A DNA stretch of 64,000 bases. It comes from an uncultured Alphaproteobacteria bacterium. GTDB taxonomy: Bacteria; Pseudomonadota; Alphaproteobacteria; Rhizobiales; Rhizobiaceae. The stretch spans positions 338,181 through 402,180 of the forward strand of contig CAWGHM010000009.1 in assembly GCA_963822365.1 (NCBI GenBank), written 5' to 3'. A program made the position numbers and the translations under genes. The notes under the pieces are model-generated. The model did not search any database. It was not told the DNA's origin and saw nothing but the letters and a program-made list of their open reading frames with translations. Shown one piece after another: positions 4,875 through 63,837 of this stretch; the first letter of the stretch is position 1, and each line of letters begins with the position of its first letter.

Positions 4875-4946
4875 ACTGTCCTGTCTTGAATGGTCACGCG
4901 TTGCTGGCTGCGGGCGCTCTTGATCGCCGCAAAAACCATGGCAAGG

Positions 4947-5930: not shown

Positions 5931-6052
5931 AGCTTACGGATTTCACTCCTACCCGATTTCCGTAAACGTTTACGGTACTATGCGGCATTTTCGAAACGTG
6001 TCAATAGAAATTAGAACCACGCACTGTTTGGGGATGGGAGAGAGACCGAAGC

Positions 6053-21646: not shown

Positions 21647-21808
21647 GGTCTTTAAGTCTTTCGTTTTGGGTCTTGGCTGGCCCTTCCGGCCCAGCATCGT
21701 GGAACGGAAGCTAGCGCGACGCCGGCCCGCCCGTCCATCCGTTTCGCGACATCGGATAGCAGGAACGGGCCATGCCGTCTGTTCTCATCTGGGAACTTGG
21801 TCCGGCGC

Positions 21809-23122: not shown

Positions 23123-23211
23123 TGTGTTCCCCTTTGGATTATTCAGACACTTTTTCGTGGAAAGGCCGCTACCTGTCTTGGGAGATCAGGCAACGGCCAG
23201 ATTGTGCTTGG

Positions 23212-28835: not shown

Positions 28836-28925
28836 GTCCTAATCATGCATCAGAAGGTCTCTTATCTGCAAGAGCCGATTGCGGATCCTGTCATGATCAC
28901 CACCAGCTTTCACGGTGAATCGATC

Positions 28926-30180: not shown

Positions 30181-30190
30181 GGACCTGATC

Positions 30191-30438
30191 ATGGCCAGCC
30201 TGATCGCCTGCCCCCATTGCGGCCCGCGCCCCAAGGAAGAATTCACCGTTCGCGGCGATGCCGGCATGACACGTCCGGCACCGGATGCCGGCGAAGACGC
30301 CTGGCATTCGACTATGTCTATCTGCGCGACAATCCGCGCGGCCGGCATCGGGAACATTGGCACCACACCTCCGGCTGCCGGCGCTGGCTGGTCGTCGAGC
30401 GCGATACGATGACCCACGCCGTCTGTCCCGCGTGTTGA
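30191..30438 (+). pseudogene. mgdB: N-methylglutamate dehydrogenase subunit B (sarcosine oxidase delta-subunit-like); one frameshift at ~30307
   Basis: MASLIACPHCGPRPKEEFTVRGDAGMTRPAPDAGEDAW in one frame. FDYVYLRDNPRGRHREHWHHTSGCRRWLVVERDTMTHAVCPAC-stop in the next frame. Confidence 0.7.
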
Positions 30439-30463
30439 CGCCGCAGGTCTGGGAGAGCCGCGC

Positions 30464-33443: not shown

Positions 33444-34008
33444 ATTTTCGCTTGTTCACCGCCCCGCCCTTTCCGGCGCAAAATCGGGATCTTTCGGCGC
33501 AACAGCGACTGACGGAAGGATTGTGCTCGAAGCGCTGCCGGAAGGACATGTGCTGCAGGTTCTCGCGTCCGGGGGAACGGGCGACCTTTCGACTATTGTT
33601 GCCTCTCTCGGCGATGGTTCGGACCATGCGGTCCGCGCTCTCGGCCCCGGCCAATGGTTCCTTGTCGGCGATGCAGGGCTCGCGCATTCGGATGTGACAG
33701 ACAAACAGGCGATCCTGTCCGGCAAGGCGTCGGTCGCCGACCAGTCCCATGGACGCGTGCGGATCGGCATCAGCGGCGCCGCTGTCGAGGCCGTGCTTGC
33801 CAAGGGCACGGCCGTCGACCTGCACCGGTCGCAGTTTCCGGTGGGCCGCTCGGCCATGACGCTGATCGGTCATATCTCGGCGCTGATCACGCGCACCGGC
33901 GAGACCCGCTTCGAAATCCTGGTTCTGCGGGGTTTTGCCGAGAGCCTCTGGGACGAACTGATCGAAATGAGCCTCGAATTCGGCGTCGATGCGCGAACCG
34001 GGTTCTGA
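33436..34008 (+). CDS. mgdD: N-methylglutamate dehydrogenase subunit D (sarcosine oxidase gamma-subunit-like)
   Basis: Intact ORF MAEFSLVHRPALSGAKSGSFGATATDGRIVLEALPEGHVLQVLASG... Start ATG 33436 overlaps the mgdC stop (33441-33443). Confidence 0.75.
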   Translation: MAEFSLVHRPALSGAKSGSFGATATDGRIVLEALPEGHVLQVLASGGTGDLSTIVASLGDGSDHAVRALGPGQWFLVGDAGLAHSDVTDKQAILSGKASVADQSHGRVRIGISGAAVEAVLAKGTAVDLHRSQFPVGRSAMTLIGHISALITRTGETRFEILVLRGFAESLWDELIEMSLEFGVDARTGF

Positions 34009-38432: not shown

Positions 38433-39985
38433 ATGACCATTATTCTTCAGCCCGGGCGCCGTCCCGCTTTCGACCCTTGAGACCATCTACTGGACCGGCG
38501 AGCCCGCCCGGCTTGATCCCTCCTTCGACACGGGCATCGAGAAGGCCGCCGCCCGCATCGCCGAGATCGCCGCCGGCAATGCGCCGGTCTATGGCATCAA
38601 TACCGGCTTCGGCAAACTGGCCAGCATCAGGATCGATGCCGCCGACGTCGCCACCCTGCAGCGCAATCTCATCCTGTCGCATTGCTGCGGCGTCGGCCAG
38701 CCGCTGGCGGAAAACATCGTCCGCCTGATCATGGCGCTGAAGCTGATCTCGCTCGGCCGTGGCGCATCCGGCGTGCGGCTCGAACTGGTGCGCCTGATCG
38801 AGGCCATGCTCGAAAAGGGCGTCATTCCGGTCATCCCGGAAAAGGGCTCGGTCGGCGCCTCCGGCGACCTCGCACCGCTTGCCCATATGGCAGCCGTGAT
38901 GATGGGTGAAGGCGAAGCCTTTTTCAAGGGCGAACAGCTTGACCGGCGCGCACCGCGCTGGAACGCGCCGGCCTGCACCCCGGTCGTTCTGGCCGCCAAG
39001 GAAGGTCTGGCGCTGATCAACGGCACGCAGGTCTCCACCGCGCTGGCGCTGGCCGGCCTGTTCCGCGCCCATCGCGCCGCACAGGCGGCGCTGATCACCG
39101 GCGCGCTGTCGACCGATGCCGCCATGGGATCGTCGGCACCGTTCCATCCCGATATCCACACGCTGCGCGGCCACAAGGGCCAGATCGATGCAGCCGCCGC
39201 CCTGCGCGGCCTGCTGGCCGGTTCGGTGATCCGCGAAAGCCATCTCGAGGGCGACGAGCGCGTTCAGGACCCCTATTGCATCCGCTGCCAGCCGCAGGTC
39301 GATGGCGCCTGCCTCGATCTCCTGCGCTCGGTTGCCCGCACGCTCGAAATCGAAGCCAATGCGGTGACCGACAATCCGCTGGTTCTGTCCGACGATTCAG
39401 CGTCGTCTCGGGCGGCAATTTTCACGCCGAGCCGGTGGCCTTCGCCGCCGATCAGATCGCCCTTGCCATCTGCGAGATCGGCGCCATCGCCCAGCGCCGC
39501 ATCGCGCTTGCTGGTCGATCCGGCCCTGTCCTACGGCCTGCCGGCGTTTCTCGCCAAGAAGCCCGGGCCTCAATTCCGGCCTGATGATCGCCGAAGTCAC
39601 CTCCGCCGCGCTGATGAGCGAAAACAAGCAGATGTCGCATCCGGCCTCGGTCGATTCGACACCGACCTCGGCCAATCAGGAAGACCATGTCTCCATGGCC
39701 TGCCATGGCGCCCGCCGCCTGCTGCAGATGACCGACAACCTGTTTTGCAATCATCGGCATCGAGGCGCTGACGGCCGCCCAGGGCGTCGACTTCCGCGCC
39801 CGCTGACCACCAGCCCGGAACTGCAACAAGGCCATTGCCGCGATCCGCACCGTCGTCGCCGACACTGGAAGTCGATCGCTATATGGCCGACGATCTGCAG
39901 GCAGCCAGCGATCTGATCGCCACCGGCATCGCTGAACGCTGCGGTTTCGGCCGGCATCCTGCCGGTCGCTGGAGGCTTGAGATGA
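38433..39985 (+). pseudogene. hutH: histidine ammonia-lyase; about 10 frameshifts
   Basis: MTIILQPG then shift. ...[45 protein letters not shown]...[26 protein letters not shown] (MIO-forming ASG). Further fragments ...[99 protein letters not shown]-term ...SLNAAVSAGILPVAGGLR-stop (TGA 39983) overlaps the hutG ATG. Confidence 0.8.
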
Positions 39986-40805
39986 ACCGTCGTTCGAAGT
40001 CACACAGGGCACATCCCCGGTCATCCTCGGCTTTCCGCACACCGGCACCGATGTGCCCGCCCGCAATCTGCGAGCGGCTGAACGACAATGGCCGCATCCT
40101 CGCCGATACCGACTGGCATATCCACCATCTCTATGACGGCCTGCTGCCGGATGCGACGACGGTGCGCGCCACCTTCCACCGCTACGTCATCGACGCCAAC
40201 CGCGACCCGGCAGGCGCCAGCCTCTATCCCGGCCAGAACACCACGGGTCTCGTGCCGCGACACGGATTTTGACGGCGTGGCCGATCTGGAAGGACGGCGA
40301 AGAGCCGACCGAAGCCGACATTGCGCTCCGGCTTGCCGATTTCCACGCGCCCTATCACGCGGCTCTGGCAGGCGGAGATCGAGCGGGTCAAGGCCATCCA
40401 CGGCATTGCCGTCCTCTACGATTGCCATTCGATCCGCTCGCAGATCCCGTTCCTGTTCGAAGGCACGCTGCCGGATTTCAACATCGGCACCGACAGCGGC
40501 AAGACCTGCGATCCGTCGATCGAGACCGCCGCCGTCGAAGTTGCGTCGAAGGCCGCAGGGCTACACCTGCATTCTCAACGGTCGCTTCAAGGGCGGCTGG
40601 ACGACGCGCCACTACGGCAAGCCGGCAGACCGGCGTGCATGCGATCCAGATGGAACTGGCGCAGTCCACCCATCTGACCACCGAGACGCCGCCCTTCGCC
40701 TATGACGACGCCAAGGCGGCCAGACTTCGCATTCACCTGAACAGACATTCTCACGCGCATCGAATCCGCTGCGCTGACACTGGCACCCACCAGAAGGGGA
40801 ACCAG

Positions 40806-40809
<4 letters not shown>
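39982..40809 (+). pseudogene. hutG: N-formylglutamate amidohydrolase; frameshifts, 3' end uncertain (40740 or 40809)
   Basis: SD GGAGG then ATG 39982, MN then a 1-nt deletion (cc vs ccc). Continues [51 protein letters not shown]... Later fragments [26 protein letters not shown] and ...[34 protein letters not shown] in other frames. Confidence 0.65.
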
Positions 40810-42483
<1,674 letters not shown>

Positions 42484-45943: not shown

Positions 45944-48900
45944 ATGAACATCTCCAAATTTTTCATCGATCGCCCCGTTTTCGCGGGCGTTTTATCCTTC
46001 ATGATCTTCATCGGCGGTCTGATTTCACTGACCGTGATGCCGATTTCTGAATATCCCGACGTGGTGCCGCCATCTGTCGTGATCCGCGCCAACTATCCCG
46101 GCGCCAACCCCAAGGTGATCGCCGAGACCGTGGCGACACCGCTGGAGGAATCGATCAACGGCGTCGAGGGCATGCTCTACATGAGCAGCCAGGCGACGAC
46201 CGATGGCCTGATGACGCTGACGGTCACCTTCAAGCTCGGCACCGATCCCGACCAGGCGCAACAGCTCGTCCAGAACCGCGTCTCCCAGGCGGAACCGCGC
46301 CTGCCCGAAGAGGTGCGCCGCCTCGGCGTGACGACGATCAAGAGTTCGCCGGACCTGATGATGGTCGTGCACCTGACCTCCCCCGAGGGTCGCTACGACA
46401 TGACCTACCTGCGCAACTATGCGCTGATCAACGTCAAGGACCGGCTGGCGCGCATCGACGGCGTCGGTCAGGTCCAGCTTTTCGGATCGGGCGACTATTC
46501 GATGCGGATCTGGCTTGATCCGCAGAAGATGGCGCAGCTTGGCCTTTCCGCTTCCGATATCGTCAATGAGATCCGCGCCCAGAACATTCAGGCCGCCGCC
46601 GGTGTCATCGGCTCCGCGCCCAATCTCGAAGGCGTCGACCTGCAGCTTTCCGTCAATGCGCAGGGGCGCCTCCAAAGCGAGGAGGAATTTGGCGAGATCA
46701 TCATCAAGACCAGCGCCTCGGGTGCCATCACGCGCCTGAAGGACGTGTCGCGGATCGAACTCGGCTCCGCCGAATATTCCCTGCGCTCGCTGCTCAACAA
46801 CAAGCAGGCGGTCGCCATTCCGGTCTTCCAGGCGCCCGGATCGAACGCGATCGAGATCGCCGATCAGGTTCGCAGCGTCATGGAGGAAATCAAGACGACC
46901 ATGCCGCAGGACGTCTCCTACGAGATCGTCTATGATACGACGCAGTTCGTGCGCGCCTCGATCGAGGCCGTGGTCGATACGCTGCTGGAAGCCATCGCGC
47001 TCGTCGTCATCGTCGTCATCCTGTTCCTGCAGACATGGCGTGCCTCGATCATTCCGCTGATTGCCGTTCCGGTCTCGATCGTCGGCACCTTTGCCGTGAT
47101 GCAGATGTTCGGCTTCTCGATCAATGCGCTCAGCCTCTTCGGCCTGGTACTCGCCATCGGCATCGTCGTCGACGATGCGATCGTCGTGGTCGAGAACGTC
47201 GAGCGCAACATCGAGAATGGTCTTGCACCGCGCGAGGCAACCTACAAGGCAATGACCGAAGTCTCCGGCCCGATCATCGCGATCGCATTGGTGCTGGTCG
47301 CCGTCTTCGTGCCGCTCGCCTTCATCTCCGGCCTCACCGGCCAGTTCTACAAGCAGTTTGCCCTGACGATTGCCATCTCGACAGTCATCTCGGCCTTCAA
47401 CTCGCTGACGCTTTCGCCGGCGCTGGCAGCACTTCTCCTGCAGTCGCATGATGCGCCGAAGGATCGTCTGACACGGGTGATGAACGGCATGTTCGGCTGG
47501 CTCTTCCGGGGCTTCAACGCCGTGTTCACGCGCGGTTCGAACGCCTACGGCACCGGTGTGCGACGGGTGATCTCACGCAAGACGCTGATGATGGCGATCT
47601 ATCTCGTTTTGATCGGCTCGACCGTGTTCATGTTCAAGGCCGTGCCGGGCGGTTTCGTGCCGCCGCAGGACAAGCAATATCTGGTCGGCTTCACGCAACT
47701 GCCGGATGGCGCATCGCTTGACCGGACGGAAGACGTGATCCGCCGCATCAGCGATATTGCGCTCAAGGTGCCGGGCGTCGAAAGCGCCATCGCCTTCCCC
47801 GGCCTGTCGATCAACGGCTTCACCAACTCGTCGAACGCCGGCATCGTCTTCCTGTCGCTGAAGCCCTTCGAGGAACGCGAGACGCCGGAGCTTTCGGCGG
47901 GCGCGATTGCCGGGCGGCTCAACCAGGAACTGGGTGTTATCCAGGATTCCTTCAGCGCCATCTTCCCGCCGCCGCCGGTTCAGGGCCTCGGCGCGATCGG
48001 CGGCTTCAAGCTGCAGATCGAGGACCGCAATGGCCTCGGCTATGAGGCGTTGGACGCAGCCGTGAAGGGCTTCCTGGCCAAGGCCTATGCGACGCCGGAA
48101 CTGGTCGGCCTGTTCTCCAGCTATCAGGTCAACGTGCCGCAGCTCTATGCCGATGTCGATCGTGCCAAGGCCAGGCAGCTGAATGTCCCGCTGCCGGATA
48201 TCTTCAACACGCTGCAGATCTATCTCGGCTCGGTCTATGTCAACGACTTCAACAAGTTCGGCCGGACCTATTCCGTCCGCGTTCAGGCGGATGCCGCCTA
48301 CAGGGCGCAGGCGGAGGATATCGGCAAGCTCGAAGTCCGCTCGACCTCAGGCGAGATGATCCCGCTTTCGGCCGTGCTCAAGGTGACCTCCAGCGCCGGG
48401 CCGGAGCGCGCCATGCGCTACAACGGCTTCCTCTCGGCCGATATCAACGGCAATGCGGCGCCCGGTGTATCCTCAGGCCAGGCGCGCGCCATTGTCGAGC
48501 AGATCGCAGCCGACACTTTGCCGGCCGGCATCAGCTTCGAATGGACGGAGCTGACGTACCAGGAAATCATCGCCGGCAATTCCGGCGTGCTGATCTTCCC
48601 GCTGGCCATCCTTCTGGTCTTCCTCGTGCTGGCGGCCCAGTATGAAAGCCTGACGCTGCCGCTCTCGATCATCATGATCGTTCCGCTCGGCATCCTCGCC
48701 GCACTGACAGGCGTCTGGCTGACAGGCGGCGACAACAATGTCTTCACCCAGATCGGCCTGATCGTTCTGGTCGGCCTGTCGGCGAAGAACGCCATCCTGA
48801 TCGTCGAGTTTGCGCGGGAGCTCGAATTCGAAGGCGCCAAGCCCTTCGATGCCGTGATCACCGCCAGCCGCCTGCGGTTGCGGCCGATCCTGATGACCTC

Positions 48901-49144
48901 GATGGCCTTCATCATGGGCGTCGTGCCGCTGGTCGTGTCCACCGGTGCAGGTGCCGAAATGCGCCACGCCATGGGTGTCGCGGTGTTCTCGGGCATGATC
49001 GGGGTCACGTTGTTCGGCCTGTTCCTGACGCCCGTCTTCTACGTGCTGGTGCGGGCGATGACCGGCAACAAGCCCCTGCGCAAGAGCGGCGCCGTGGAAC
49101 AAGCCCACTCGCCCGCGCTCGCTGCGCATCCTGCGGCCGAATAA
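45944..49144 (+). CDS. RND multidrug efflux transporter permease (AcrB/MexB family)
   Basis: 1066-aa intact ORF MNISKFFIDRPVFAGVLSFMIFIGGLISL..., 12-TM HAE1 architecture. Confidence 0.9.
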   Translation: MNISKFFIDRPVFAGVLSFMIFIGGLISLTVMPISEYPDVVPPSVVIRANYPGANPKVIAETVATPLEESINGVEGMLYMSSQATTDGLMTLTVTFKLGTDPDQAQQLVQNRVSQAEPRLPEEVRRLGVTTIKSSPDLMMVVHLTSPEGRYDMTYLRNYALINVKDRLARIDGVGQVQLFGSGDYSMRIWLDPQKMAQLGLSASDIVNEIRAQNIQAAAGVIGSAPNLEGVDLQLSVNAQGRLQSEEEFGEIIIKTSASGAITRLKDVSRIELGSAEYSLRSLLNNKQAVAIPVFQAPGSNAIEIADQVRSVMEEIKTTMPQDVSYEIVYDTTQFVRASIEAVVDTLLEAIALVVIVVILFLQTWRASIIPLIAVPVSIVGTFAVMQMFGFSINALSLFGLVLAIGIVVDDAIVVVENVERNIENGLAPREATYKAMTEVSGPIIAIALVLVAVFVPLAFISGLTGQFYKQFALTIAISTVISAFNSLTLSPALAALLLQSHDAPKDRLTRVMNGMFGWLFRGFNAVFTRGSNAYGTGVRRVISRKTLMMAIYLVLIGSTVFMFKAVPGGFVPPQDKQYLVGFTQLPDGASLDRTEDVIRRISDIALKVPGVESAIAFPGLSINGFTNSSNAGIVFLSLKPFEERETPELSAGAIAGRLNQELGVIQDSFSAIFPPPPVQGLGAIGGFKLQIEDRNGLGYEALDAAVKGFLAKAYATPELVGLFSSYQVNVPQLYADVDRAKARQLNVPLPDIFNTLQIYLGSVYVNDFNKFGRTYSVRVQADAAYRAQAEDIGKLEVRSTSGEMIPLSAVLKVTSSAGPERAMRYNGFLSADINGNAAPGVSSGQARAIVEQIAADTLPAGISFEWTELTYQEIIAGNSGVLIFPLAILLVFLVLAAQYESLTLPLSIIMIVPLGILAALTGVWLTGGDNNVFTQIGLIVLVGLSAKNAILIVEFARELEFEGAKPFDAVITASRLRLRPILMTSMAFIMGVVPLVVSTGAGAEMRHAMGVAVFSGMIGVTLFGLFLTPVFYVLVRAMTGNKPLRKSGAVEQAHSPALAAHPAAE

Positions 49145-49157
49145 GCGGCAAAAAGCC

Positions 49158-49193
49158 GACCGACCTCCACCTCTGCAACGGTGGAGGTCGGTC
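49158..49193. terminator. GC-rich hairpin after RND pump gene (14-bp perfect stem GACCGACCTCCACC / GGTGGAGGTCGGTC)
   Basis: Begins 14 nt after the acrB-like stop. U-tract (GCTTTTTGCC) is on the minus-strand side rather than the plus side. Confidence 0.4.
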
Positions 49194-49378
49194 CTCATGC
49201 GCATCTGAACCAGCGACACCTGCGACGGCTAAAAAGTCAAATCTTGCGCAACTGCAGCAAAAACTTCTGGACGATCGGTCTCTCCGCCCTAGGTCTGAAA
49301 TAGCGTTTCGCCGAAATGGCTTCTCCGCAAAATTCTACCGGGCCTTCAAAATTCCGGTTGATTCAAGGAAACGAAGAT

Positions 49379-50716
49379 ATGACCACTTCCGCTGATCCCG
49401 GGCGTTTTCCCCGCATCGCACTGATTTCGACCCATGGCTATGTTGCCGCAATCCCGCCGCTCGGCGCCGCCGACACCGGCGGACAGGTGGTCTACGTCAT
49501 TGAACTGGCCCGCAAATTTGCCCAGCTCGGCTATACCGTCGATGTCTATACCCGCCGCTTCGAGGACCAGCCGGAGTTCGACGAGGTCGATGATCGGGTC
49601 CGGGTGATCCGCATTCCCTGCGGCGGTCCCGATTTCATTCCGAAGGAATATCTGCATCGCTCGCTGATGGAATGGTGCGAGAACGCGCTGCGCTTCATCA
49701 AGCGCGACAACCTCAACTACGTTTTCATCAACAGTCACTATTGGGATGCCGGCGTTGCCGGCCAGCGTCTGTCGGAAGCCCTGTCCGTGCCGCATGTCCA
49801 TACCCCGCATTCGCTGGGACTCTGGAAGAAGCGGCAGATGGAAACCGACTACCCGGAAAAGGCCGATACGTTCGAGACGGAGTTCAACTTTTCCGAACGC
49901 ATCAAGCATGAACTGATCATCTACCGAAGCTGCGACATCGTCATTGCCACGACCCCGGTCCAGCTGGACGTTCTTGTCGATGACTACGGAATGGCCAAGA
50001 GCCGGGTGCACATGGTGCCGCCGGGCTATGACGACAATCGTTTCTTCCCGGTTTCCTCCGCCTCCCGCGAAATGGCCCGCCAGCGGCTCGGTTTCGAAGG
50101 CAAGGTCGTGCTGGCGCTCGGACGACTGGCAACGAACAAGGGCTATGATCTGCTGATCGACGCTTTCGGGGTGCTGGCCGAGCGCGAGCCGGAAGCACGC
50201 CTGTTGCTGGCTGTGGGCGGTGAAAACATCGATGATGCGGAAAAGGCCATTCTGGACGAATTGAAGGCCAAGGCTAAAGAACTGAACCTGGAAGACCGCA
50301 TCGACTTTTCCGGCTTCGTCGCCGACGACGACCTGCCCGACTATTATCGCGCGGCCGATCTCTTCGTCCTGTCGAGCCGCTACGAGCCGTTCGGCATGAC
50401 GGCGATCGAGGCCATGGCGAGCGGCACGCCGACGATCATCACCGTCCATGGCGGCCTCTATCGTGCCATCAGCTACGGACGCCATGCGCTGTTTGCCGAT
50501 CCGTTCGACAAGTACGACCTCGGCATCACCATGATGAAACCGTTGAAGCACGAGCGGCTCTATGGGCGCCTGTCCCGCATGGGTGCACACAAGGCACGCA
50601 GCCTCTTCACCTGGACGGGCATTGCACAGCAGATCATCGCCGTCGTTGAAGGGCGTCCGATGCTGCAGGCGCTGGATGACAAGGAATGGGCGGAACCATG
50701 GAACGACGGAGATTGA
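49379..50716 (+). CDS. GT4 glycosyltransferase, sucrose-phosphate synthase / mannosylfructose-phosphate synthase (MfpsA)-like
   Basis: Intact ORF (list 49316..50716). Preferred start MTTSADPGRFPRIALISTHGYVAAIPPLGAADTGGQVVYVIELAR at ATG 49379 (SD AAGGA). SPS-type glucosyltransferase-domain motifs. Confidence 0.8.
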   Translation: MTTSADPGRFPRIALISTHGYVAAIPPLGAADTGGQVVYVIELARKFAQLGYTVDVYTRRFEDQPEFDEVDDRVRVIRIPCGGPDFIPKEYLHRSLMEWCENALRFIKRDNLNYVFINSHYWDAGVAGQRLSEALSVPHVHTPHSLGLWKKRQMETDYPEKADTFETEFNFSERIKHELIIYRSCDIVIATTPVQLDVLVDDYGMAKSRVHMVPPGYDDNRFFPVSSASREMARQRLGFEGKVVLALGRLATNKGYDLLIDAFGVLAEREPEARLLLAVGGENIDDAEKAILDELKAKAKELNLEDRIDFSGFVADDDLPDYYRAADLFVLSSRYEPFGMTAIEAMASGTPTIITVHGGLYRAISYGRHALFADPFDKYDLGITMMKPLKHERLYGRLSRMGAHKARSLFTWTGIAQQIIAVVEGRPMLQALDDKEWAEPWNDGD

Positions 50717-51690
50717 AACCGGTCCGGCTTTTTTCCTCCGATCTCGACGGGACCCTGGCCGGAAACCGGGAAGCCGAAGCGCGATTTGCGGAAGCCTGGG
50801 GCAGGCTCGATCCCTCAACCCGACCGCTCCTCGTCTACAATAGCGGTCGACTGATCGAGGACATGCAGTCGTTCCTGCCGCAGACAGCCCTTCCGACCGC
50901 CGATTTCCTCATCGGCGGCGTCGGGACCATGCTTGTGAACATCGACCAAGCGGACGAGGCTGCGATTTACACCGCATCGCTCGGGCAACCTTTCGATGTC
51001 AACAGCATCCGGTCGATCCTGGAAAAAAGTGGCGCGATCACCTTGCAGCCCGACCAGTTCCAGCATGCGCATAAATCCAGCTGGTATCTGCACGACGCAT
51101 CTGAAGAGGCCATCGCGCAGATCGAGCAGGAGCTACAACAGGCCGGCCAGAATATCCGTGTCGTCTATTCCAGCGCGCGCGACCTCGATATCCTTCCGTC
51201 AGGAATCGACAAGGGCGCGGCGCTGAGCTGGCTCTGTCAGCGACTGGGTATTGCGCTCGATGAGGTCGTTGTCGCCGGCGACACGGGAAATGATTCCAGC
51301 ATGTTCCTGCTGGATGACGTGCGCGGGATCGTCGTTGGAAACGCGCTGCCCGAGCTTGCGGCTCTCGCCCCGGAGCGACCGAACATCTATGTCGCTCAAC
51401 AGCGGATCGCCGATGGCGTCCTGGAAGGTTTCCGCCATTGGGACATCATTGACACCGGCGCAAATAAGGTAAGTAGAAACTTACAATCTGAGAGCCCACA
51501 TCGTCGCATTGACCACGCTGCCGGGGGCAGCCTTCAGCCTGGCGGATCGTACAGGTGCGAAACCATCCAGGCGTTTTGTGCCGACCCAGCGGCCATCATC
51601 GGCAAAGACCTCGATAGAGCCATAGTCCAGGAAGATCCGCAGCTTTTTCGGTCGGGCACCGCGCGCCACGTAATCTGGGGAAGGCCCTGA
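50698..51690 (+). CDS. HAD-IIB sucrose-phosphatase / mannosylfructose-phosphate phosphatase (MfppA)-like; ORF probably over-extended at 3' end
   Basis: MERRRLKPVRLFSSDLDGTLAG (DxDGT HAD motif I)...SGIDKGAALSW...VVAGDTGNDSSMF. Start overlaps the GT stop. The ORF runs ~200 nt into the convergent GH32 gene without a stop; real end likely ~51470. Confidence 0.6.
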   Translation: MERRRLKPVRLFSSDLDGTLAGNREAEARFAEAWGRLDPSTRPLLVYNSGRLIEDMQSFLPQTALPTADFLIGGVGTMLVNIDQADEAAIYTASLGQPFDVNSIRSILEKSGAITLQPDQFQHAHKSSWYLHDASEEAIAQIEQELQQAGQNIRVVYSSARDLDILPSGIDKGAALSWLCQRLGIALDEVVVAGDTGNDSSMFLLDDVRGIVVGNALPELAALAPERPNIYVAQQRIADGVLEGFRHWDIIDTGANKVSRNLQSESPHRRIDHAAGGSLQPGGSYRCETIQAFCADPAAIIGKDLDRAIVQEDPQLFRSGTARHVIWGRP

Positions 51691-53201
51691 ACCCTCGACT
51701 TCATGACGAATCCACAGTCCCTGCTCGTCGACGAAGACGCCAAGCTGGACGCCGGGGCGATCCAGTTCCAGCTCGAATTGCGTGCCCGGCTCGGTCAGTT
51801 CGAACAGGATTTCGGCAGCACCGGTCTCGAGTTTCACAGCCTGCCCCGCAGCCAGGCGTGTCCTGTCGAGCATCTGGCCGCGCAGGCTTTCGGCCGGGCC
51901 GATCGGCGGCGTGCAGAGCACCCCGTTTGCGAGCAGGATACGGCGTGGCAGGGTCATGGCTGTCGGAAAATCGATCGTCGGTCCGGCATCGGCCCAATTG
52001 GCAAGCCAGCCGATGCCGACCGCCGTATCGCCATCCATGAAAGCCTGGAAGGCATAATTGTCCGTGCCGAAATCGAGCTCCTGCTCATATTCCTTGACGA
52101 AGCTGCGGCCATCGAACCAGCCGACGGCCGCCATGGTCAGGTTTTTGCGCCGCGTCACCGCGTCTTCGCTGGTCATGAGGCCGTAGATCAGCGCCCATCG
52201 CGTCGCCGGATCGGTCGCCGGACCATCGAGCGGCAACATGCACGGGCATTCGGTCGCGGTGGTCCTGTAGCGCTTCTCGACGGAGAGCTTGCCTATAAAG
52301 TCCAGCCGCCGGCTGCTGTATGATCCTTCGTCTCATAGAGCAGGATGACGCCACCCTCGTCGCTCTGGCTGCCGAGCAGCATCTTCCACAGCCCATCCGG
52401 CCCCTTGAAGACGTAAGGGTCCCGGAAATCCAGCGTCAGCCCCTGATTTTCCGGGCGATGCGGCAGGATAACCTCGGCCTGGCCGGCCATGATCAGATCA
52501 CCGGAGGTCGCCGTCAGTTGGATCTGCTGTTCAGGCTGGCGATCCTGCACCTGTTCGGTAAAGAACACACGGATACCCGGCCCATCGGGCAGAGGGATTG
52601 CGGATCCCGAGAAGGCGCCGCCGCGTTTGTCGGCTCGGGCCGCAACGTCTTCGGACGGAAACAGGAAGATCGGCAGATGCCGCCAGCGGAGATAGTCGGA
52701 GGAAACCGCATGGCCCCAATGCATCGTGTTCCAGCGCAGCCCGTGGGAATAATGCTGGTAGAACAGATGCGGTCGCCCGCCGAAGCGGCCAAAACCGTTG
52801 GGATCGTTCATCCAGCCGAACGGTGGACGAAAATGGTAACCGCCCGGCAGATCCGGTGGCGCATTGACGGGATTGGTGTGGATGACGGTGATGCCCGTTT
52901 CCAGAACATCCGCCGGCGTGAACCAATAGGCGACCGACACCGAGGTTTCCGCGGTATCGTAGCTGAGTTCGATCGGTCCGCCGCCGAAGACATGGAAGAT
53001 GCGAAACTCGTTTTCCTCGGCATTGGTAACCAGCACCTCGCCGAACTTGCCACGGGCGCTGGTGAAGGACAGGGAGCCCTGCCTGCCCTCGGCAACCGCC
53101 TTCAGCCAGATATGCAGCGTCGCATTGACCGGCAGTTCGACCGGCAATGTGCGCATAGTGGCGGACACGTCCGTGGTTGCAGTCTGGTCCATTGTGCTCA
53201 C
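51481..53201 (-). pseudogene. glycoside hydrolase family 32 (beta-fructofuranosidase/sucrose-6-phosphate hydrolase-like); one frameshift at ~52290-52320
   Basis: N-terminal fragment (ORF 52293..53201) carries the GH32 signature WMNDPNG after a ~125-aa N-terminal extension. C-terminal beta-sandwich fragment (ORF 51481..52239) is in another frame. Confidence 0.75.
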
Positions 53202-53393
53202 CTCATCCGAAAAAACATCGCGCCGCCCGACAGGTCATTCAAAGCTGCGAAGACGAGCAGATCATTGAAGTCAGGCACGGACATGCTGCCTCCGGCCCAA
53301 ACGACATCGGGGAGGGATATGGCTCCCTCCCCGATGATTTCAACGATGATCTCAGGCGAATGTGCCAGCGCGCGGGAGCGCACCCGTGAAACG

Positions 53394-55062
53394 TCACGCC
53401 TTTTGGGGTTCGTCCTTCCTGGGTGCATCGAGACCCGACATCAGCGAACTGATCGCATTGTCGCCGTCGAAACCGGCTTCCTTCATCAGCCGGTCCAGGA
53501 TCGGCTTGTTTGCCTGATAGGCGAGAAGCTGGCCGGCCAGCCCTTCGCCCATGCCGATCCCGCCTCCGGACGCGCCGCCCGCACCGCCGCGGCCGAGCAT
53601 GCCGCCGGTGTCGAAGATGCGGATATCCGAGATCTTCTCGATCGGCTTGACGGCTTCGGCAAGGGCAGCCGGGATGACGCGGATGCGCTCGCGGGTGATT
53701 TCGAATTCGATGATGGCGGCACTCAGCCGGTTGCGGGCTTCGTTGAGAAGCGCTTCGCTCTCGGCCTGCGCCTTGCCGGTTTCGAGGATCGCCTTTTGCC
53801 TTGATGATCGCCGCATCGGCTTCGGCCAAGGCCAGCGTCTTGATGGCATCCGCCTGGTCGGTCGCGGCCTGTTTTTCAGCCTCGGCGCCAACGGTCACGG
53901 CCGTCGCCTCGGTTTCAGCCTTCTTGCGCGCATCGATCACCGCGATCAGTTTCTCGCGCTCGGCGATTTCCACGGCCTTGGCGGTATGCACTTTTTCTTC
54001 CGCCGCAATCGCCAGTGCGCGGGCAGTTTCGGCCCTTGCCCTGGCTTCGGATTCCTCGCGGCTCTTGTTGGCAACGGCAATCGCGCTTTCCTGCGAAACG
54101 ATCTGCAGGTCGCGCTGGGCTTCGGTATCGCGCTGGCGCACAGCCCGCGACGCATCGATATTGGCACTTTCGCGGGCCTGTTTGGCGGTCGCTTCGCGTT
54201 CGGCAATCGCCTGTTCCGCCGCAATGCGCGCCTCTTCCTCGGCGCGCTTGGCGGCCTGTTCCTGCTGCGCCGTTTCCGCTCGCGTTGCGGCCGACTTGTT
54301 GGCGATGTCGCGCTCCTGGCTGAGCTCCGCCTCGCGCTTGGTCCGCTCGATCGTCAGGGATTGCTGTCTCGCCTCGAGATCCTTCTGGGCAATCGCCACT
54401 TCGGTGTCGCGGACGATTTCGTTGCGCTCTTTCTTGCGGCCTTCGGTAATGCGCGTCAGCGCCGCCAGACCATGCGCATCGAAGAAGTTGTTGGCGTTGA
54501 AATGCTTGATATCGGTCTGGTCGAGCCGCGTCAGCGACACCGATTCCAGTTCGAGACCGTTGGATTGAAGGTCGGCACCGACCGCCTCCTGCACCGCCTT
54601 GACGAAGTCCATGCGCTGTTCCTGCAGGGCATCGAGCGTCATCGTTGCCGCAACCGAACGCAGGCCGTCGACGAATTTCGCCTCGATCAGGATGCGCAAC
54701 TGTTCGGCATCGTTGGTCCTGTCGCCGAGCGTCTGGGCCGCAAGGGCAATCGACGAAGCGTCCGGCTTCACACGGACGTAGAATTCCGCGCCGATATCGA
54801 CACGCATGCGATCCTTGGTGATCAGCGCATCGCCTTCGCCGCGGCGGACTTCGAGCCGCAGGGTCTTCAGGTTGACCCGTGCGATCGAATGGAAGATCGG
54901 CAGCACGATCGAGCCGCCGTCGAGCACGACCTTCTGGCCGCCGAGGCCGGTGCGCACATAGGCCTCGTCACGGCTGGAGCGCGTATAGAGAGATGCGAGA
55001 ACAAAACCGATGGCAAAAAAGAGTACGACACCGATCGCGACAGGCCAAATGAGTTCAAACAT
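53394..55062 (-). pseudogene. flotillin-like SPFH/band-7 protein (YqiK/FloA-like); one frameshift at ~53800
   Basis: ORF 53239..55062 has N-terminal TM + SPFH domain + long Ala/Glu-rich coiled coil to ...AIIKAKG. The true C-term ...ILETGKAQAESEALLNEARNRLSAAIIEFEITRERIRVIPA...RKDEPQKA-stop is in ORF 53394..53891. The junction gcAAAAggcgatcctc has one extra A. Confidence 0.8.
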
Positions 55063-55064
55063 GG

Positions 55065-55721
55065 TCAGTGCTCCGTTGGGGGGTGGTCCGTCGCGGCCTG
55101 CAGGTCGGGCGGCGCGACGATGGCGGTAAAGATATTCTTGGTGCGATCGACCAGAAGCACGATGGTGCGGACAGGGATGGCCGCTTCACCGCGGGCGGCG
55201 CAGGCACGCACCGTATGCCAGTTTCCATGGGCATCCTTCAGCTGCACCTGTCCGGGCAGCCCCTGGTCGAGGGGGCCGACCGTCACCTGCCCCGTGCGAC
55301 CGACAAGTTCGGTGAGATCGACGGCATAGGTTTCGTCGCGGGGCACGATACGGGCCACCGCACGGGTCGAATGGCGCGTCAGGGGGATCGTGCAGATGAC
55401 CGACAGGGTGGCTGCGATGCTGGCCGGCAAGAGCCCGTATAGCTGACTGGCAACCATCTGGATCAACAGGCCGCAGATCGCGAAGATGCCGAGAAACAGC
55501 ATCACCAGAATAAGGATGGGCACGCCGCCGACATTGAACCAGGAGAAGAGCCAGGACAGGCCATCATGGCTGTCGATGGGATCGCCGAGCATATCGCTGA
55601 AGGAAAACCCGATCACCATCGCCATGACCTCGATAACGGTCAGCGCAACCAGGATCGCGGCAGCGATGAAGAACGGGGCAGATTCAGGAGCGAGAAGCAG
55701 GCTCATCAGGGGTTTTTCCAT
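55065..55721 (-). CDS. NfeD-like membrane protein (YqiJ family), partner of flotillin
   Basis: 218-aa ORF. N-terminal multi-TM region plus C-terminal OB-fold-like soluble domain. ATGA overlap with the flotillin start at 55062. Confidence 0.8.
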   Translation of the reverse strand: MEKPLMSLLLAPESAPFFIAAAILVALTVIEVMAMVIGFSFSDMLGDPIDSHDGLSWLFSWFNVGGVPILILVMLFLGIFAICGLLIQMVASQLYGLLPASIAATLSVICTIPLTRHSTRAVARIVPRDETYAVDLTELVGRTGQVTVGPLDQGLPGQVQLKDAHGNWHTVRACAARGEAAIPVRTIVLLVDRTKNIFTAIVAPPDLQAATDHPPTEH

Positions 55722-56358
55722 CCGACTTCAAAAGGGCAAGTCTTGCTTCGATGGCCCGTTCGCGATGCAGCCGATCAAGCTCGTCGAGTTCCATTATACC
55801 GTTTCGCTCGCCGGCTGGAACTCCCGTCACGCGCGATACCGCAGCACTGGCGCGGGCCGATCGATCCGTCGGCTCCCGGCGCCGGGGTGCTGACGTTTGG
55901 TCGTCTGGATAACGGTTCAGACTGCGTTTCAATTCGGTCAACCGTTCTTCCGCTTCGCGCCGGGCAGCCAGAACCGCCTGAAGCGCCTTTTGCCCCTCGT
56001 CGACCTGGCTGCGGGCGTCATCGAGCGCCTTGTCGAGGGCAGCGATCTGCGACTCCAGATCGATCTGCCGGGCGACACCGGCCTTTGCCAGATCATCGCG
56101 GCCGGCTTCGATCGCAACCTGGATTTTTTCGCCCAAGCTGGCGATATCCGCGATGATTTCGCCGCGCCGGCTCTGGATGCGATAGTCCTGCGCCTGCGCC
56201 TTGCCGAGATCGGCCCGCGCCTCTTCGGCCGCCGCATCGATCTCCCGGATCGCCTGCTCGACCACAGCCACCTTGTTGACGTCTTCCGCCTTGTCGATCG
56301 TGGCATTGGCAATGCCTGCGATCAGACGGCCCATGCGGGAGAGAATTCCTTCGTTCAT
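55684..56358 (-). CDS. PspA/IM30 family protein (phage-shock protein A-like)
   Basis: 224-aa segment MNEGILSRMGRLIAGIANATIDKAEDVNKVAVVEQAIREID... (coiled coil) matches the PspA N-terminus. Own SD AGGAG 9 nt upstream of ATG 56358. The ORF stays open in frame upstream to 56853/57093. Confidence 0.7.
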   Translation of the reverse strand: MNEGILSRMGRLIAGIANATIDKAEDVNKVAVVEQAIREIDAAAEEARADLGKAQAQDYRIQSRRGEIIADIASLGEKIQVAIEAGRDDLAKAGVARQIDLESQIAALDKALDDARSQVDEGQKALQAVLAARREAEERLTELKRSLNRYPDDQTSAPRRREPTDRSARASAAVSRVTGVPAGERNGIMELDELDRLHRERAIEARLALLKSDGKTPDEPASRS

Positions 56359-56853
56359 CGCACTGCGCTCCTGTGTTCGCGGCGTGTTCGGCGTCACGCC
56401 GATGTGGATTTCGTAGTGATCGGGAAAGGCAACCAGACTGGCTGGAAAGGCACCTTCCCACCCCCTGGAATAACCGGCAACATCAAAGCCGGCCGTGACA
56501 CGCCCGCGGACAGTCGCCAACGTCAGCAGCGACGGCCCCTTGATGGCAAAAAGCTTGTCGTCCAGCGGCAGGCGCGGCGGCACCGGAAGCACCCCGCCAT
56601 GAGTGGCGAAATCCCGAAGCCCGAGCGTGACCAGACGCGAGGGCAGCCCAGTCTGTTCACGCACGCGTTCATAGGCAAGATCATGCAGTGCCACGAGATT
56701 GGCACCGGCCTGCGGCGTCGCCACCTCCTGTAAAATCCGCATCATTGCCGCATAGGCTTTGAACGTTTCTTCCAGCGATTGCAGACCATAGTCATCCAGC
56801 GCCAGCTCATAGCGCAGATGCGATGGATGGGTCGGTGTCGGGTCTCTTTTCAT
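56359..56853 (-). CDS. hypothetical protein, in frame and contiguous with the PspA-like gene (no intervening stop)
   Basis: 165-aa stretch MKRDPTPTHPSHLRYELALDDYGLQSLEETFKAYAAMMRILQEV...AFPDHYEIHIGVTPNTPRTQERSA is followed directly by MNEGIL of PspA. No family recognised. Confidence 0.3.
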
Positions 56854-57152
56854 GGCTTGAACATAAAGCACTTCTTTGGTGCTTTCAAGATGCACGATCA
56901 GAAAATTCCCGTTTGCGAAGGGTGGCAGCGGAGCCAACTCGAACCAAGAGCACATTGCGAAGAGGCGTTTCCCGGACCAGGAACATTTTCCCCGCACGCA
57001 CCCTCGGCAGATTTTCAGCGATCGCGAATATACTTGATAGACCTGTATTCGGACCGTTGCCCGATGGACGGGTTGAAAGCGCGATGACATCATGGCGCGC
57101 GGGCGGGTGTCGGGAGAGCAGCCAGCCGTTCGAAAATGACCGGGAGGAATGC

Positions 57153-58253
57153 ATGAAAAAAGTCGGTATCGGCATCATCGGGTGCGGGAATATTTCAGGC
57201 GCCTATCTGAAGGCCATGACTTCGTTTCCGATCCTCGACATCCGTGGCATTGCCGATTTGAACAGCGATCTGGCGGCCGCAAGGGCAGCCGAATTCAAGG
57301 TGCCGGCCCGGGATATCGCCGCGCTTTTGGCAGATCCCGAAATAGAGATCATCGTCAACCTCACGGTTCCGAAAGCCCATGTGACTGTCGCGCTGCAGGC
57401 GCTTGATGCCGGCAAGCACACCTATTCGGAAAAGCCGCTCGGCATCAATTTTGCCGAGGGCAAAAAGCTGGCGGAGGCTGCGAAGACCAGGAACCTGCGC
57501 ATCGGCGCTGCACCGGATACCTTCCTTGGCGGCAGCCACCAGACGGCCCGCGAACTCGTCGATCGGGGCGTCATCGGCCAGCCGGTCGGCGGAACCGCAA
57601 CCTTCATGTGCCCGGGCCACGAGCGCTGGCATCCGAACCCGGATTTCTACTACGAGACCGGTGGTGGCCCGATGCTGGACATGGGTCCCTACTACATCAC
57701 CGATCTGGTCAACCTGCTCGGCCCGGTTTCGCAGGTGGCCGGTTTTGCGATCACGCCGCGCAGCGAACGTGTGATCACCAGCGAACCCCGCAACGGGCAG
57801 CGCATCCCCGTGCATGTGCCGACCCATGTCGCCGGCGTCATGGCCTTTGCCAATGGTGCGGTGGTGCAGATCGGGATGAGTTTCGACGTTGCCGGCCACA
57901 AACATGTCCCGCTGGAAGTCTACGGCACGGAGGGAACGCTGATCGTACCGGATCCGAACAATTTCGGCGGCGAGGTCGAACTGTTGAAAAAGGGCGGCAC
58001 CTTCGAGGTTCAGCAAACGACGCAACCCTACGCCGACGGCAACTATCGCTCGATCGGCGTGGCGGACCTCGCGCATGCGATCCGCTCGGATCGTCCGCAC
58101 CGGGCCGATGGCAATCTCGCCCTGCATGTGCTTGAGGTCATGGAAGCTTTTCAGACCGCGTCCGATACCGGACGGACGATCACGATCACCACCGCAACGG
58201 ACCGGCCCGAAGCCCTGTCGGCCTCGCTCGTCGACGGCCGACTGGCCCGTTGA
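57153..58253 (+). CDS. Gfo/Idh/MocA family oxidoreductase (ThuB-like)
   Basis: ORF 56823..58253. Start MKKVGIGIIGCGNISGAYL at ATG 57153 with SD GGGAGG. 366 aa, intact. Confidence 0.85.
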   Translation: MKKVGIGIIGCGNISGAYLKAMTSFPILDIRGIADLNSDLAAARAAEFKVPARDIAALLADPEIEIIVNLTVPKAHVTVALQALDAGKHTYSEKPLGINFAEGKKLAEAAKTRNLRIGAAPDTFLGGSHQTARELVDRGVIGQPVGGTATFMCPGHERWHPNPDFYYETGGGPMLDMGPYYITDLVNLLGPVSQVAGFAITPRSERVITSEPRNGQRIPVHVPTHVAGVMAFANGAVVQIGMSFDVAGHKHVPLEVYGTEGTLIVPDPNNFGGEVELLKKGGTFEVQQTTQPYADGNYRSIGVADLAHAIRSDRPHRADGNLALHVLEVMEAFQTASDTGRTITITTATDRPEALSASLVDGRLAR

Positions 58254-58286
58254 CCATCATGAAGATTGCATTCAGGAGGAAAGACC

Positions 58287-58928
58287 ATGCGTGAAGCACT
58301 GATCGTCTGGGGAGGCTGGAGCGGCCATGAGCCGGAGGAATGCGCCGCCGTCATCAAGGGCATACTGGAGGAGGACGGCTTCAAGGTTCGCGTGGAGGCA
58401 AGCACGGAAGCTTTCGCCGATCCCGCAATCCATGATCTCTCGCTGGTGGTCCCGATCGTCACGATGTCGAAGATCGAAAAGGCGGAAATCAGCAACCTCG
58501 CCGCCGCCATCGAAAGCGGCGTGGGCATTGCCGGATACCATGGCGGCGCCGGCGACAGCTTCCGCGACTGCGTCGATTACCAGTTCATCATCGGCGGCCA
58601 GTGGGTGGCGCATCCGGGCAACATCATCGACTACCGCGTCAACATCACCCGGCCGGACGACCCGGTGATGCAGGGCATCACCGACTTTCCCTACACGTCG
58701 GAGCAATATTACATGCATGTCGATCCATCCAACGAGGTGCTGGCGACGACGACCTTTACCGGCGAGCACGCCTCCTGGATCGACGGCGTCGTCATGCCTG
58801 TGGTCTGGAAACGGAACTACGGCAAGGGCCGCGTTTTCTATTCCTCCCTCGGCCATCAGGCCAAGGAGTTCGACGTGCCGCAGATGAGGACGATCTTCCG
58901 CCGCGGCGCTGCCTGGGCCGCGCGCTGA
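58287..58928 (+). CDS. ThuA domain-containing protein (trehalose-utilisation ThuA-like, class-I glutamine amidotransferase-like fold)
   Basis: MREALIVWGGWSGHEPEECAAVIKGILEEDGFKV... ATG 58287 with SD AGGAGGA. 213 aa, intact. Confidence 0.75.
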   Translation: MREALIVWGGWSGHEPEECAAVIKGILEEDGFKVRVEASTEAFADPAIHDLSLVVPIVTMSKIEKAEISNLAAAIESGVGIAGYHGGAGDSFRDCVDYQFIIGGQWVAHPGNIIDYRVNITRPDDPVMQGITDFPYTSEQYYMHVDPSNEVLATTTFTGEHASWIDGVVMPVVWKRNYGKGRVFYSSLGHQAKEFDVPQMRTIFRRGAAWAAR

Positions 58929-59053
58929 AGCAATTCTCCGCATCGTGCCGACTGACCCTCGGCACGATGTAGACAAATTTTCCACAGAAGACTTTACAGT
59001 CTACTTCTCCGGGATTACAGAGAGGGCTCAGCCAATCGTTCCGGAGAGTCCCC

Positions 59054-60160
59054 ATGCAGATCGAGGAATTCACGCTTGAGCGGATTCAGTCGCTTTATGA
59101 AAATCTGGTCGAATTCAATCTCTCCGACAGCGGCGTTCATCCCTATTCGCTGAAGGAACTGCTGACACCGGATCAGCTGCTTGGTCTGCATGACGTCGAA
59201 CTCGGCTATGGCTGGACCAATGGCGGCGTCGAGCTGCGCGACACCATCGCCCGGCTCTACACGGGCCGCGACCGCGATAACGTCATGGTCACCAACGGCT
59301 CGGCTGAAGCCAATTTCATTCTCGTGATGACCCTGCTGGAGCCGGGCGACGAGATGGTTCTGGTCGTTCCGAACTACCTGCAGATCCGCGGCTGGGCCAA
59401 GGCGCTGGGCGTCACCGTCAAGGAGATCGTGCTGCGCGAGGAACTGGGTTGGCGGCCTGATCTCGATGAAGTGCGCGCCGCGGTCACGCCGAAGACCAAG
59501 CTCATCAGCCTCTGCAACCCCAACAACCCGACCGGCAGCCTGCTGCCGCGCGAAACCATGGACGCGTTGGTCGATATCGCCCGCGAACACGACGTCTATC
59601 TGCATGCCGACGAAATCTACAAGGGCTCGGAACTCGACACCGAGGAATCCATCAGCTTCGCGGACCTCTATGAGAAGGCCGTTGTCACCGCCGGCCTGTC
59701 CAAGGCCATGGCCCTGCCCGGCCTGCGCCTCGGCTGGCTGGTCGGACCTGCCAGGGAGATCTACGCCACATGGCAGCGCAAGGACTACACCTCGATCACG
59801 ACAGGCGCGCTCAGCGAGCATATCGCCAACATCGTACTGCAGCCGGCCAAGCGCGGCGAGATCCTGTCGCGCAGCCGCCGGCTTCTCCGGGAAAACCGCG
59901 CCTTCCTGACCTCGTGGATCGAAGCGCACAACAACCTGTTTTCCTACCTGCCGCCACAGGCCGGCGGCATGGCCTTCGTCCGGTACAACCGTGACATCAA
60001 CTCCTCCGTGCTGGTCGATCGTGTCCGCGAGCAGAAAAGCGTCATGCTGGTCCCCGGCGACGTCTATGGGCTCGACGGTTACATCCGCATCGGCATCGGC
60101 GCGCAAAAACATCATCTGGAGGCAGGATTGGGCCGTCTTGCAGATTTCATGCGAAGCTGA
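59054..60160 (+). CDS. PLP-dependent aminotransferase (class I/II)
   Basis: 368-aa intact ORF. PLP-lysine region TAGLSKAMALPGLRLGW. Confidence 0.85.
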   Translation: MQIEEFTLERIQSLYENLVEFNLSDSGVHPYSLKELLTPDQLLGLHDVELGYGWTNGGVELRDTIARLYTGRDRDNVMVTNGSAEANFILVMTLLEPGDEMVLVVPNYLQIRGWAKALGVTVKEIVLREELGWRPDLDEVRAAVTPKTKLISLCNPNNPTGSLLPRETMDALVDIAREHDVYLHADEIYKGSELDTEESISFADLYEKAVVTAGLSKAMALPGLRLGWLVGPAREIYATWQRKDYTSITTGALSEHIANIVLQPAKRGEILSRSRRLLRENRAFLTSWIEAHNNLFSYLPPQAGGMAFVRYNRDINSSVLVDRVREQKSVMLVPGDVYGLDGYIRIGIGAQKHHLEAGLGRLADFMRS

Positions 60161-61741: not shown

Positions 61742-61775
61742 CAAAACGGTCCCGCTTCTTTCAACTTGAGCCATT

Positions 61776-63837
<2,062 letters not shown>

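Follow-up and report, generated by a model that had tools for sequence, protein, structure and literature searches.

A putative mannosylfructose-type synthase-phosphatase operon, a lost stop codon and a convergent GH32 gene in a Rhizobiaceae contig

The mannosylfructose pathway was reportedly defined by Torres and Salerno in 2007, and we take its synthase (EC 2.4.1.246) and phosphatase (EC 3.1.3.79) to be the products of the mfpsA-mfppA genes of Agrobacterium tumefaciens/fabrum C58. The disaccharide that accumulates in Agrobacterium in a NaCl-dependent manner is mannosucrose (beta-fructofuranosyl-alpha-mannopyranoside), not sucrose (PMC2918589). The stretch of DNA analysed here (the window; 64,000 nt of contig CAWGHM010000009.1 from an uncultured alphaproteobacterium of the Rhizobiaceae) contains a gene pair of comparable layout, in which a GT4 glycosyltransferase (GT) gene is followed by an overlapping HAD-IIB phosphatase gene, and a GH32 beta-fructofuranosidase gene that faces the pair tail to tail. 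As deposited, the open reading frame (ORF) of the phosphatase lacks a stop at its expected end and the GH32 gene is broken in two. From sequence comparison, we put at about 0.8 the probability that the GT and phosphatase genes are a two-gene operon orthologous to Agrobacterium mfpsA-mfppA and that the insertions and deletions (indels) disturbing the cluster are most likely artefacts. Operons of this type are already known, close relatives carry the corresponding annotation, and the biological weight of the locus is small, the anomaly that drew attention to it being one extra base that is most probably not biological. The elements of the cluster are the following.

49379..50716, plus strand: mfpsA-like GT4 glycosyltransferase gene, 445 aa, intact (ORF list, Pfam, orthologues)
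50698..51472, plus strand: mfppA-like HAD-IIB (S6PP family) phosphatase gene, 257 aa after correction, protein end ..IIDTGANK, stop TAA at 51470-51472
51468..51469, plus strand: window-specific 1-nt insertion, GG against a single G in relatives, putting the TAA out of frame (five-way alignment)
51469..51690, plus strand: spurious 73-codon tail plus stop, running antisense through the GH32 3' end, without homologue and without a coding-type signal of its own in third-position GC content (GC3)
51481..53201, minus strand: three-domain GH32 beta-fructofuranosidase gene, about 570 aa in relatives, split here (ORFs, Pfam, model)
52296..52298, minus strand: window-specific 1-nt deletion at 52297 breaking the GH32 frame (..GGWTYIGKL.. 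or equivalent in four relatives, GGWTL and then a stop in the window)

The lost stop codon and other frame breaks

Four relatives, namely a metagenome contig labelled 3x coverage (L001), Rhizobium sp. 32-5/1 (L002), Rhizobiales AFS086343 (L003) and Pararhizobium antarcticum (L085), were compared with the window in a five-way nucleotide alignment, and further loci were drawn from A. larrymoorei (L083), R. herbae (L084), A. rubi (L086), S. fredii (L088) and Opitutaceae/Verrucomicrobia (L004-L081). The metagenome contig is aligned to window positions 49347..59528 (10.2 kb) at 98.5% identity. A plasmid megablast with the 4.1-kb region as query gave only weak GH32 matches (71-74%) without synteny, and a scan of genome contigs returned no genome above 84% for the phosphatase, its single-sequence patterns yielding mainly Opitutaceae loci.

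The GT gene is listed as an ORF at 49316..50716 (plus strand), and a start at 49379, with AAGGAAA about 7 nt 5' of the ATG, agrees with all 445-aa orthologues (N-terminus MTT..). Its translation has the N- and C-terminal domains of the GT-B/GT4 class (PF13439, Glyco_transf_4; PF00534, Glycos_transf_1), a sucrose-synthase-like N-terminal motif (PF00862) of the kind seen in sucrose-phosphate synthase (SPS), and the EX7E-type motif EPFGMTAIEAMASG. The phosphatase ORF as written occupies 50686..51690 (plus strand) and encodes 334 aa, or 330 aa from the ATG at 50698, which AAGGAA precedes and at which orthologues start (MERRRLKPV..). With the GT stop TGA at 50714-50716, the two genes have 19 nt in common (50698-50716), as had been read from the letters alone in an earlier note on this DNA (the sequence-only reading), and they are probably translationally coupled through this overlap. 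An S6PP-type phosphatase directly after and overlapping the synthase, the arrangement expected of an operon, recurs in the same order in the metagenome contig, A. larrymoorei, R. herbae and P. antarcticum.

The Pfam S6PP profile (PF05116, 213 bits) is matched by residues 14-254 of the phosphatase over profile positions 3-247 of 247, which leaves the last ~77 aa as extra sequence, and the HAD motifs I-IV (DLDGT, NSGR, DKG, GDTGND) are invariant in the homologue alignment. The best 120 homologues are all 245-279 aa and none covers the last ~77 residues; the closest (P0001, on the metagenome contig) is 98% identical, is 257 aa long and ends in ..HWDIIDTGANK. The size of a single-domain protein of this type, about 245-265 aa, is exceeded by the ORF as written (330-334 aa) and is recovered, at 257 aa, by removing one G. 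At the critical site the metagenome contig reads AAT AAG TAA GTAG against AAT AAG GTA AGT AG in the window, and none of the other four aligned sequences has the extra G. The TAA at 51470-51472 is the phosphatase stop in the metagenome contig, AFS086343 and P. antarcticum, where an 8-nt gap separates it from the convergent GH32 stop, and in Rhizobium sp. 32-5/1 the stop lies 15 nt earlier. One extra G directly before the ancestral TAA made the phosphatase ORF overrun its stop. The sequence-only reading had suspected a terminal frameshift of this kind and had proposed aligning the C-terminus to locate the real stop, which is this TAA; orthologues of ~330 aa, which would have made the overlap genuine, are absent, with 0 of the 120 best homologues above 279 aa. 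Its estimate that the uncorrected ORF extends ~200 nt into the GH32 3' end compares with 210 nt measured from the GH32 minus-strand stop at 51481-51483, and the plus-strand stops that it placed in the other frames at 51467-51475 do exist, at 51465-67 (TAA), 51470-72 (TAA) and 51474-76 (TAG), its coordinates missing these by 2 nt on the left and by 1 nt on the right.

The stops of both convergent genes are contained in a short inverted repeat, which is kept in 4/4 relatives compared.

51469..51484, no strand assigned: GTAAG-N6-CTTAC inverted repeat (read from sequence)

The possibility that the long C-terminal tail with its 210-nt antisense overlap is a selected feature, either an overlapping gene or a readthrough or recoding device, has next to no likelihood and is effectively refuted by the comparison of orthologues. 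Nothing speaks for it except that the ORF is open as written, and the tail is absent from all homologues, lacks a codon-position GC signature of its own and is precluded in the relatives by their stops, three at the TAA 8 nt from the GH32 stop and one 15 nt before it. These plain stops likewise led to the rejection of a programmed frameshift or readthrough. In random sequence of 60% GC the chance of 73 stop-free codons is 0.968^73, or about 0.09 by our own arithmetic; an open run of this length after a lost stop is not improbable, and should be likelier still antisense to a GC3-rich gene.

The GH32 gene, taken as intact in the sequence-only reading, is cut in two by the loss of one nucleotide at 52297. 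The resulting ORFs, one of 302 aa (52293..53201) and one of 252 aa (51481..52239), each match a part of the Pfam profile for the GH32 N-domain (positions 1-166 and 196-304), and the frame that breaks here at ~52297 is intact at 570-574 aa in all four relatives. Both the 51468/51469 insertion and the 52297 deletion are autapomorphies of the window in the five-way alignment. The adjoining flotillin gene carries a further window-specific break, an extra base at ~53791, and is intact at 555 aa in the metagenome contig, Rhizobium sp. 32-5/1 and AFS086343.

53394..55062, minus strand: flotillin gene (Band_7 and Flot domains; 555 aa in relatives), split by an extra base at ~53791 (listed as evidence of the error pattern)

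Judged by their Pfam profiles, at least seven other genes of the window are fragmented or truncated, with flotillin as the eighth: SoxA, SoxB, HutH, HutG, HutU, a glutamine-synthetase-like and a glutamate-synthase-like gene, located at 28659-34005, 38437-42480 and 21652-24095. The GCV_T profile of sarcosine oxidase alpha is distributed over two ORFs (28-150 and 149-252), the SoxB-like DAO is present as profile pieces 1-130 and 285-352, histidine ammonia-lyase ends at profile position 371 of 466, formylglutamate amidohydrolase is in two pieces of which the second is fused in frame to urocanase, and urocanase is itself split into at least two pieces. The window appears to carry frequent single-base indels throughout, and the frameshift first noted as a local curiosity thus has many single-base counterparts.

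Substitutions between the window and the metagenome contig fall at third codon positions in 59 of 69 cases (86%) over six coding stretches, with 15/18 in the two GH32 halves, and because of this excess the genes are judged to be under purifying selection up to the present. The metagenome contig has private indels of its own in the GT gene, +4 (GTCT) at 441-444 and +1 (A) at 789, corresponding to window ~49786 and ~50130; its GT is split, and that of the window is intact at these places. Since frame breaks are scattered over the whole window on a background of purifying selection, the indels are very probably assembly or sequencing errors of a long-read-type assembly, and private indels in two near-identical sequences over clean synonymous divergence are what noisy long-read, low-coverage assemblies are expected to give. 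In that case the phosphatase would in truth have 257 aa and the GH32 protein ~570 aa.

It is unlikely that the indels are instead real and mark a recent pseudogenisation of GH32 (together with flotillin, hut and sox) and a 330-aa MfppA with a 73-residue nonsense tail. They do stand in the deposited sequence, 2/3 of the coding indels lie outside homopolymers, and in the metagenome contig, too, a gene of the cluster, though a different one, has its frame broken. Real indels would, however, amount to roughly ten or more frame breaks over 64 kb, in catabolic genes of housekeeping type, and they would have to have come in a burst while selection on substitutions stayed unrelaxed (86% third-position against a 98.5% identical relative), and the private indels of the metagenome contig, labelled 3x, are different ones, as expected of noisy assemblies. 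A missing stop, fused ORF or split gene in this window is presumptively an assembly artefact until compared with relatives or reads. Inspected by eye for association with the GANTC methylation motif, only the 53791 indel site fits, and no claim is drawn from it.

Sugar specificity of the pair

The GT is 81% identical, gap-free over 445/445 residues, to the GT of A. larrymoorei that adjoins an overlapping S6PP phosphatase. GT homologues at 95-97% identity, all 445 aa, are named mannosylfructose-phosphate synthase (JGI or UniRef), and an 83%-identical phosphatase homologue is named mannosylfructose-6-phosphate phosphatase by JGI. Together with the Pfam and NCBIfam matches, these results bear out the proposal, made from the letters, of a pair resembling SPS and sucrose-phosphate phosphatase (SPP) and more specifically MfpsA and MfppA.

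Among named models, TIGR02472 (SPS glycosyltransferase domain) and TIGR01485 (SPP) are of those that match best, and solved structures near the two proteins include the SPS entries 6kih and 2r60 for the GT and, as the nearest one, the Synechocystis SPP entry 1s2o for the phosphatase, which would suit a true SPS/SPP pair with sucrose as its product. Such a pair is nevertheless very unlikely. The MshA entry 3c48 is also among the nearest solved relatives of the GT. The scores are far under the NCBIfam equivalog cut-offs (GT 204.4 against 576 bits; phosphatase 138.8 against 183.65 bits), the GT scores on the MshA model equal those on the SPS model, the Agrobacterium orthologue and the names of the close homologues point to mannosylfructose, and the sugar that Agrobacterium accumulates under salt is mannosucrose, not sucrose (PMC2918589). 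Because the SPS/SPP cut-offs are missed and MshA scores equally well, generic similarity does not settle the sugar, and orthology does better as a guide, with GDP-mannose as the predicted donor. The GT would convert GDP-mannose and fructose-6-phosphate to mannosylfructose-6-phosphate, which the S6PP-type phosphatase would hydrolyse to mannosylfructose (mannosucrose), an osmoprotective disaccharide, and inorganic phosphate.

Several points weigh against an mfpsA-mfppA operon disturbed by artefactual indels. The orthology of the GT was established with A. larrymoorei and not with the characterised proteins of A. fabrum C58, NCBIfam holds no MfpsA model, and sequence similarity alone cannot tell GDP-mannose from UDP-glucose donors. 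The artefactual origin of the indels is argued from comparison, with which a genuine, very recent mutation in the strain is also compatible, and a homopolymer is extended (G to GG) by only 1/3 of the coding indels. Finally, the exact 334/330-aa phosphatase ORF is not in the protein collection, a result that is uninformative on the source annotation.

The genes of the cluster differ in divergence. Relative to Rhizobium sp. 32-5/1, AFS086343 and P. antarcticum, identities are 94-97% for GT (window sequence), 90-93% for GH32 (sequence of the metagenome contig) and 74-84% for the phosphatase. In verrucomicrobial genomes the encoded GT shares 65-75% identity with the MfpsA-like GT of rhizobia, the phosphatases reach just ~45-52%, and three of these loci (L055, L071, L076) have two phosphatase copies. 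The likeness of the verrucomicrobial GT would reflect either unusually high cross-phylum conservation or horizontal transfer.

The GH32 gene and its surroundings

The GH32 protein has the expected catalytic signatures, FGWMNDPNGF (nucleophile), FRDPYVF (transition-state stabiliser) and TATECPCM (acid/base), all invariant in the alignment, and belongs to a family of 567-577 aa that is widespread in Rhizobiaceae. Its N-terminal extension of ~125 aa, recognised from the letters alone, is real, with Glyco_hydro_32N (Pfam) beginning at residue 123 and sequence matches to PDB entries spanning only residues 116-560. The orthologue from P. antarcticum, 91% identical, was modelled with AlphaFold (pTM 0.81); the model contains the five-bladed catalytic propeller and the C-terminal beta-sandwich, and its residues ~15-110 form a confident eight-strand beta domain, the N-terminal beta-sandwich (N-domain pLDDT about 85-95). 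The top Foldseek matches of the model are all GH32 structures. Because of this confident beta domain and a full-length match to the solved GH32 structure 6NOB, the extension is, on the model, a genuine domain with structural precedent and not an oddity of annotation. The enzyme is probably cytoplasmic, since no signal peptide is evident in its N-terminus as read by eye. A literature search on GH32 and Rhizobium found no characterisation of this rhizobial family, and to our knowledge three-domain rhizobial GH32 enzymes are so far unstudied. The position of the gene differs among the loci compared, as follows.

Window, L001, L002, L003 and L085: GH32 tail-to-tail with the phosphatase gene
A. larrymoorei (L083) and R. 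herbae (L084): no GH32 beside the GT-HAD pair
Opitutaceae/Verrucomicrobia (L004-L081): no GH32 match in the loci fetched
S. fredii (L088): LacI-SBP-permease-permease-GH32-ATPase operon, of the sugar-uptake ABC type (SBP, substrate-binding protein)
A. rubi (L086): GH32 adjoining an MFS transporter

Within these loci the adjacency of GH32 to mfpsA-mfppA is seen only in one narrow, Pararhizobium antarcticum-like clade. By default the enzyme is read as a general beta-fructofuranosidase acting inside the cell on imported fructosides. The convergent three-domain enzyme could also cleave mannosylfructose, and the idea that it is the degradative counterpart of the pair is chemically plausible; that it was recruited tail-to-tail in this clade as a dedicated mannosylfructose hydrolase is nonetheless a tentative and rather improbable proposal. 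A role in mannosylfructose turnover would be chemically reasonable, its basis being one adjacency event. If true, GH32 and mfpsA-mfppA would make up a compact synthesis/degradation module for osmolyte turnover. We know of no mannosylfructose-degrading enzyme described so far, and the clade-specific GH32 beside the operon is a mildly useful lead in that it nominates a candidate for this breakdown step.

Beyond the GH32 gene, a Gfo/Idh/MocA oxidoreductase gene and a ThuA-family gene, resembling the thuAB disaccharide-oxidation pair, are found at ~57155-58930 of the window and at 4815-6590 of the P. antarcticum locus. The pair adjoins GH32 in P. antarcticum and is separated from it in the window clade by a membrane-stress module, flotillin-YqiJ-PspA. 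At the other end, the cluster does lie directly 3' of an RND pump gene (45944..49144), as the sequence-only reading had it, and this adjacency is not conserved in relatives: no RND match occurs in the 4-5 kb 5' of the GT gene in Rhizobium sp. 32-5/1 or AFS086343, and P. antarcticum has FGase/MATCAP genes in its place. A hairpin with a T-run on its minus-strand side only separates the pump from the GT gene and is probably a transcription-unit boundary.

49158..49193, no strand assigned: perfect 14-bp inverted repeat with an 8-nt loop, 3' of the RND pump stop and 5' of the GT gene

A scan for promoters and terminators gave no sigma-70-like promoter, and terminators were at chance level except for this hairpin. 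The Rfam search had no match within or close to the cluster; at 61770-61902 (plus strand) the window has a thiamine pyrophosphate (TPP) riboswitch (RF00059, 69.5 bits, above the gathering score).

Comparison with known systems

Like cyanobacterial and other bacterial SPS and SPP (6kih, 2r60; 1s2o), the pair is predicted to use a sugar nucleotide and fructose-6-phosphate and then to remove the phosphate, and it shares with them the GT-B/GT4 and HAD-IIB folds and a full-profile Pfam S6PP match. Unlike them, it misses the NCBIfam equivalog cut-offs widely, and its donor is likely to be GDP-mannose. The GH32 enzyme has its solved precedent in the three-domain protein of Bifidobacterium adolescentis (PDB 6NOB), on which the P. 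antarcticum model superposes over three domains with a query-normalised template-modelling (TM) score of 0.80, although the rhizobial protein has just 21% sequence identity to it and, in S. fredii, A. rubi and the window, varies in gene context.

The closest likeness is to Agrobacterium mfpsA-mfppA, in which a 445-aa GT4 is likewise followed by an overlapping S6PP-type HAD-IIB phosphatase of ~250 aa, and the identities to the A. larrymoorei pair are 81% for the GT and 55% for the phosphatase. The overlap differs, being 19 nt in the window and its close clade and 4 nt (ATGA) in A. larrymoorei and R. herbae; in contrast to Agrobacterium, a convergent GH32 gene abuts the phosphatase in this clade only, and the phosphatase stop is lost as written. 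Judged by orthology the cluster belongs to the Agrobacterium mfpsA-mfppA system, and by curated thresholds it is not an SPS/SPP pair.

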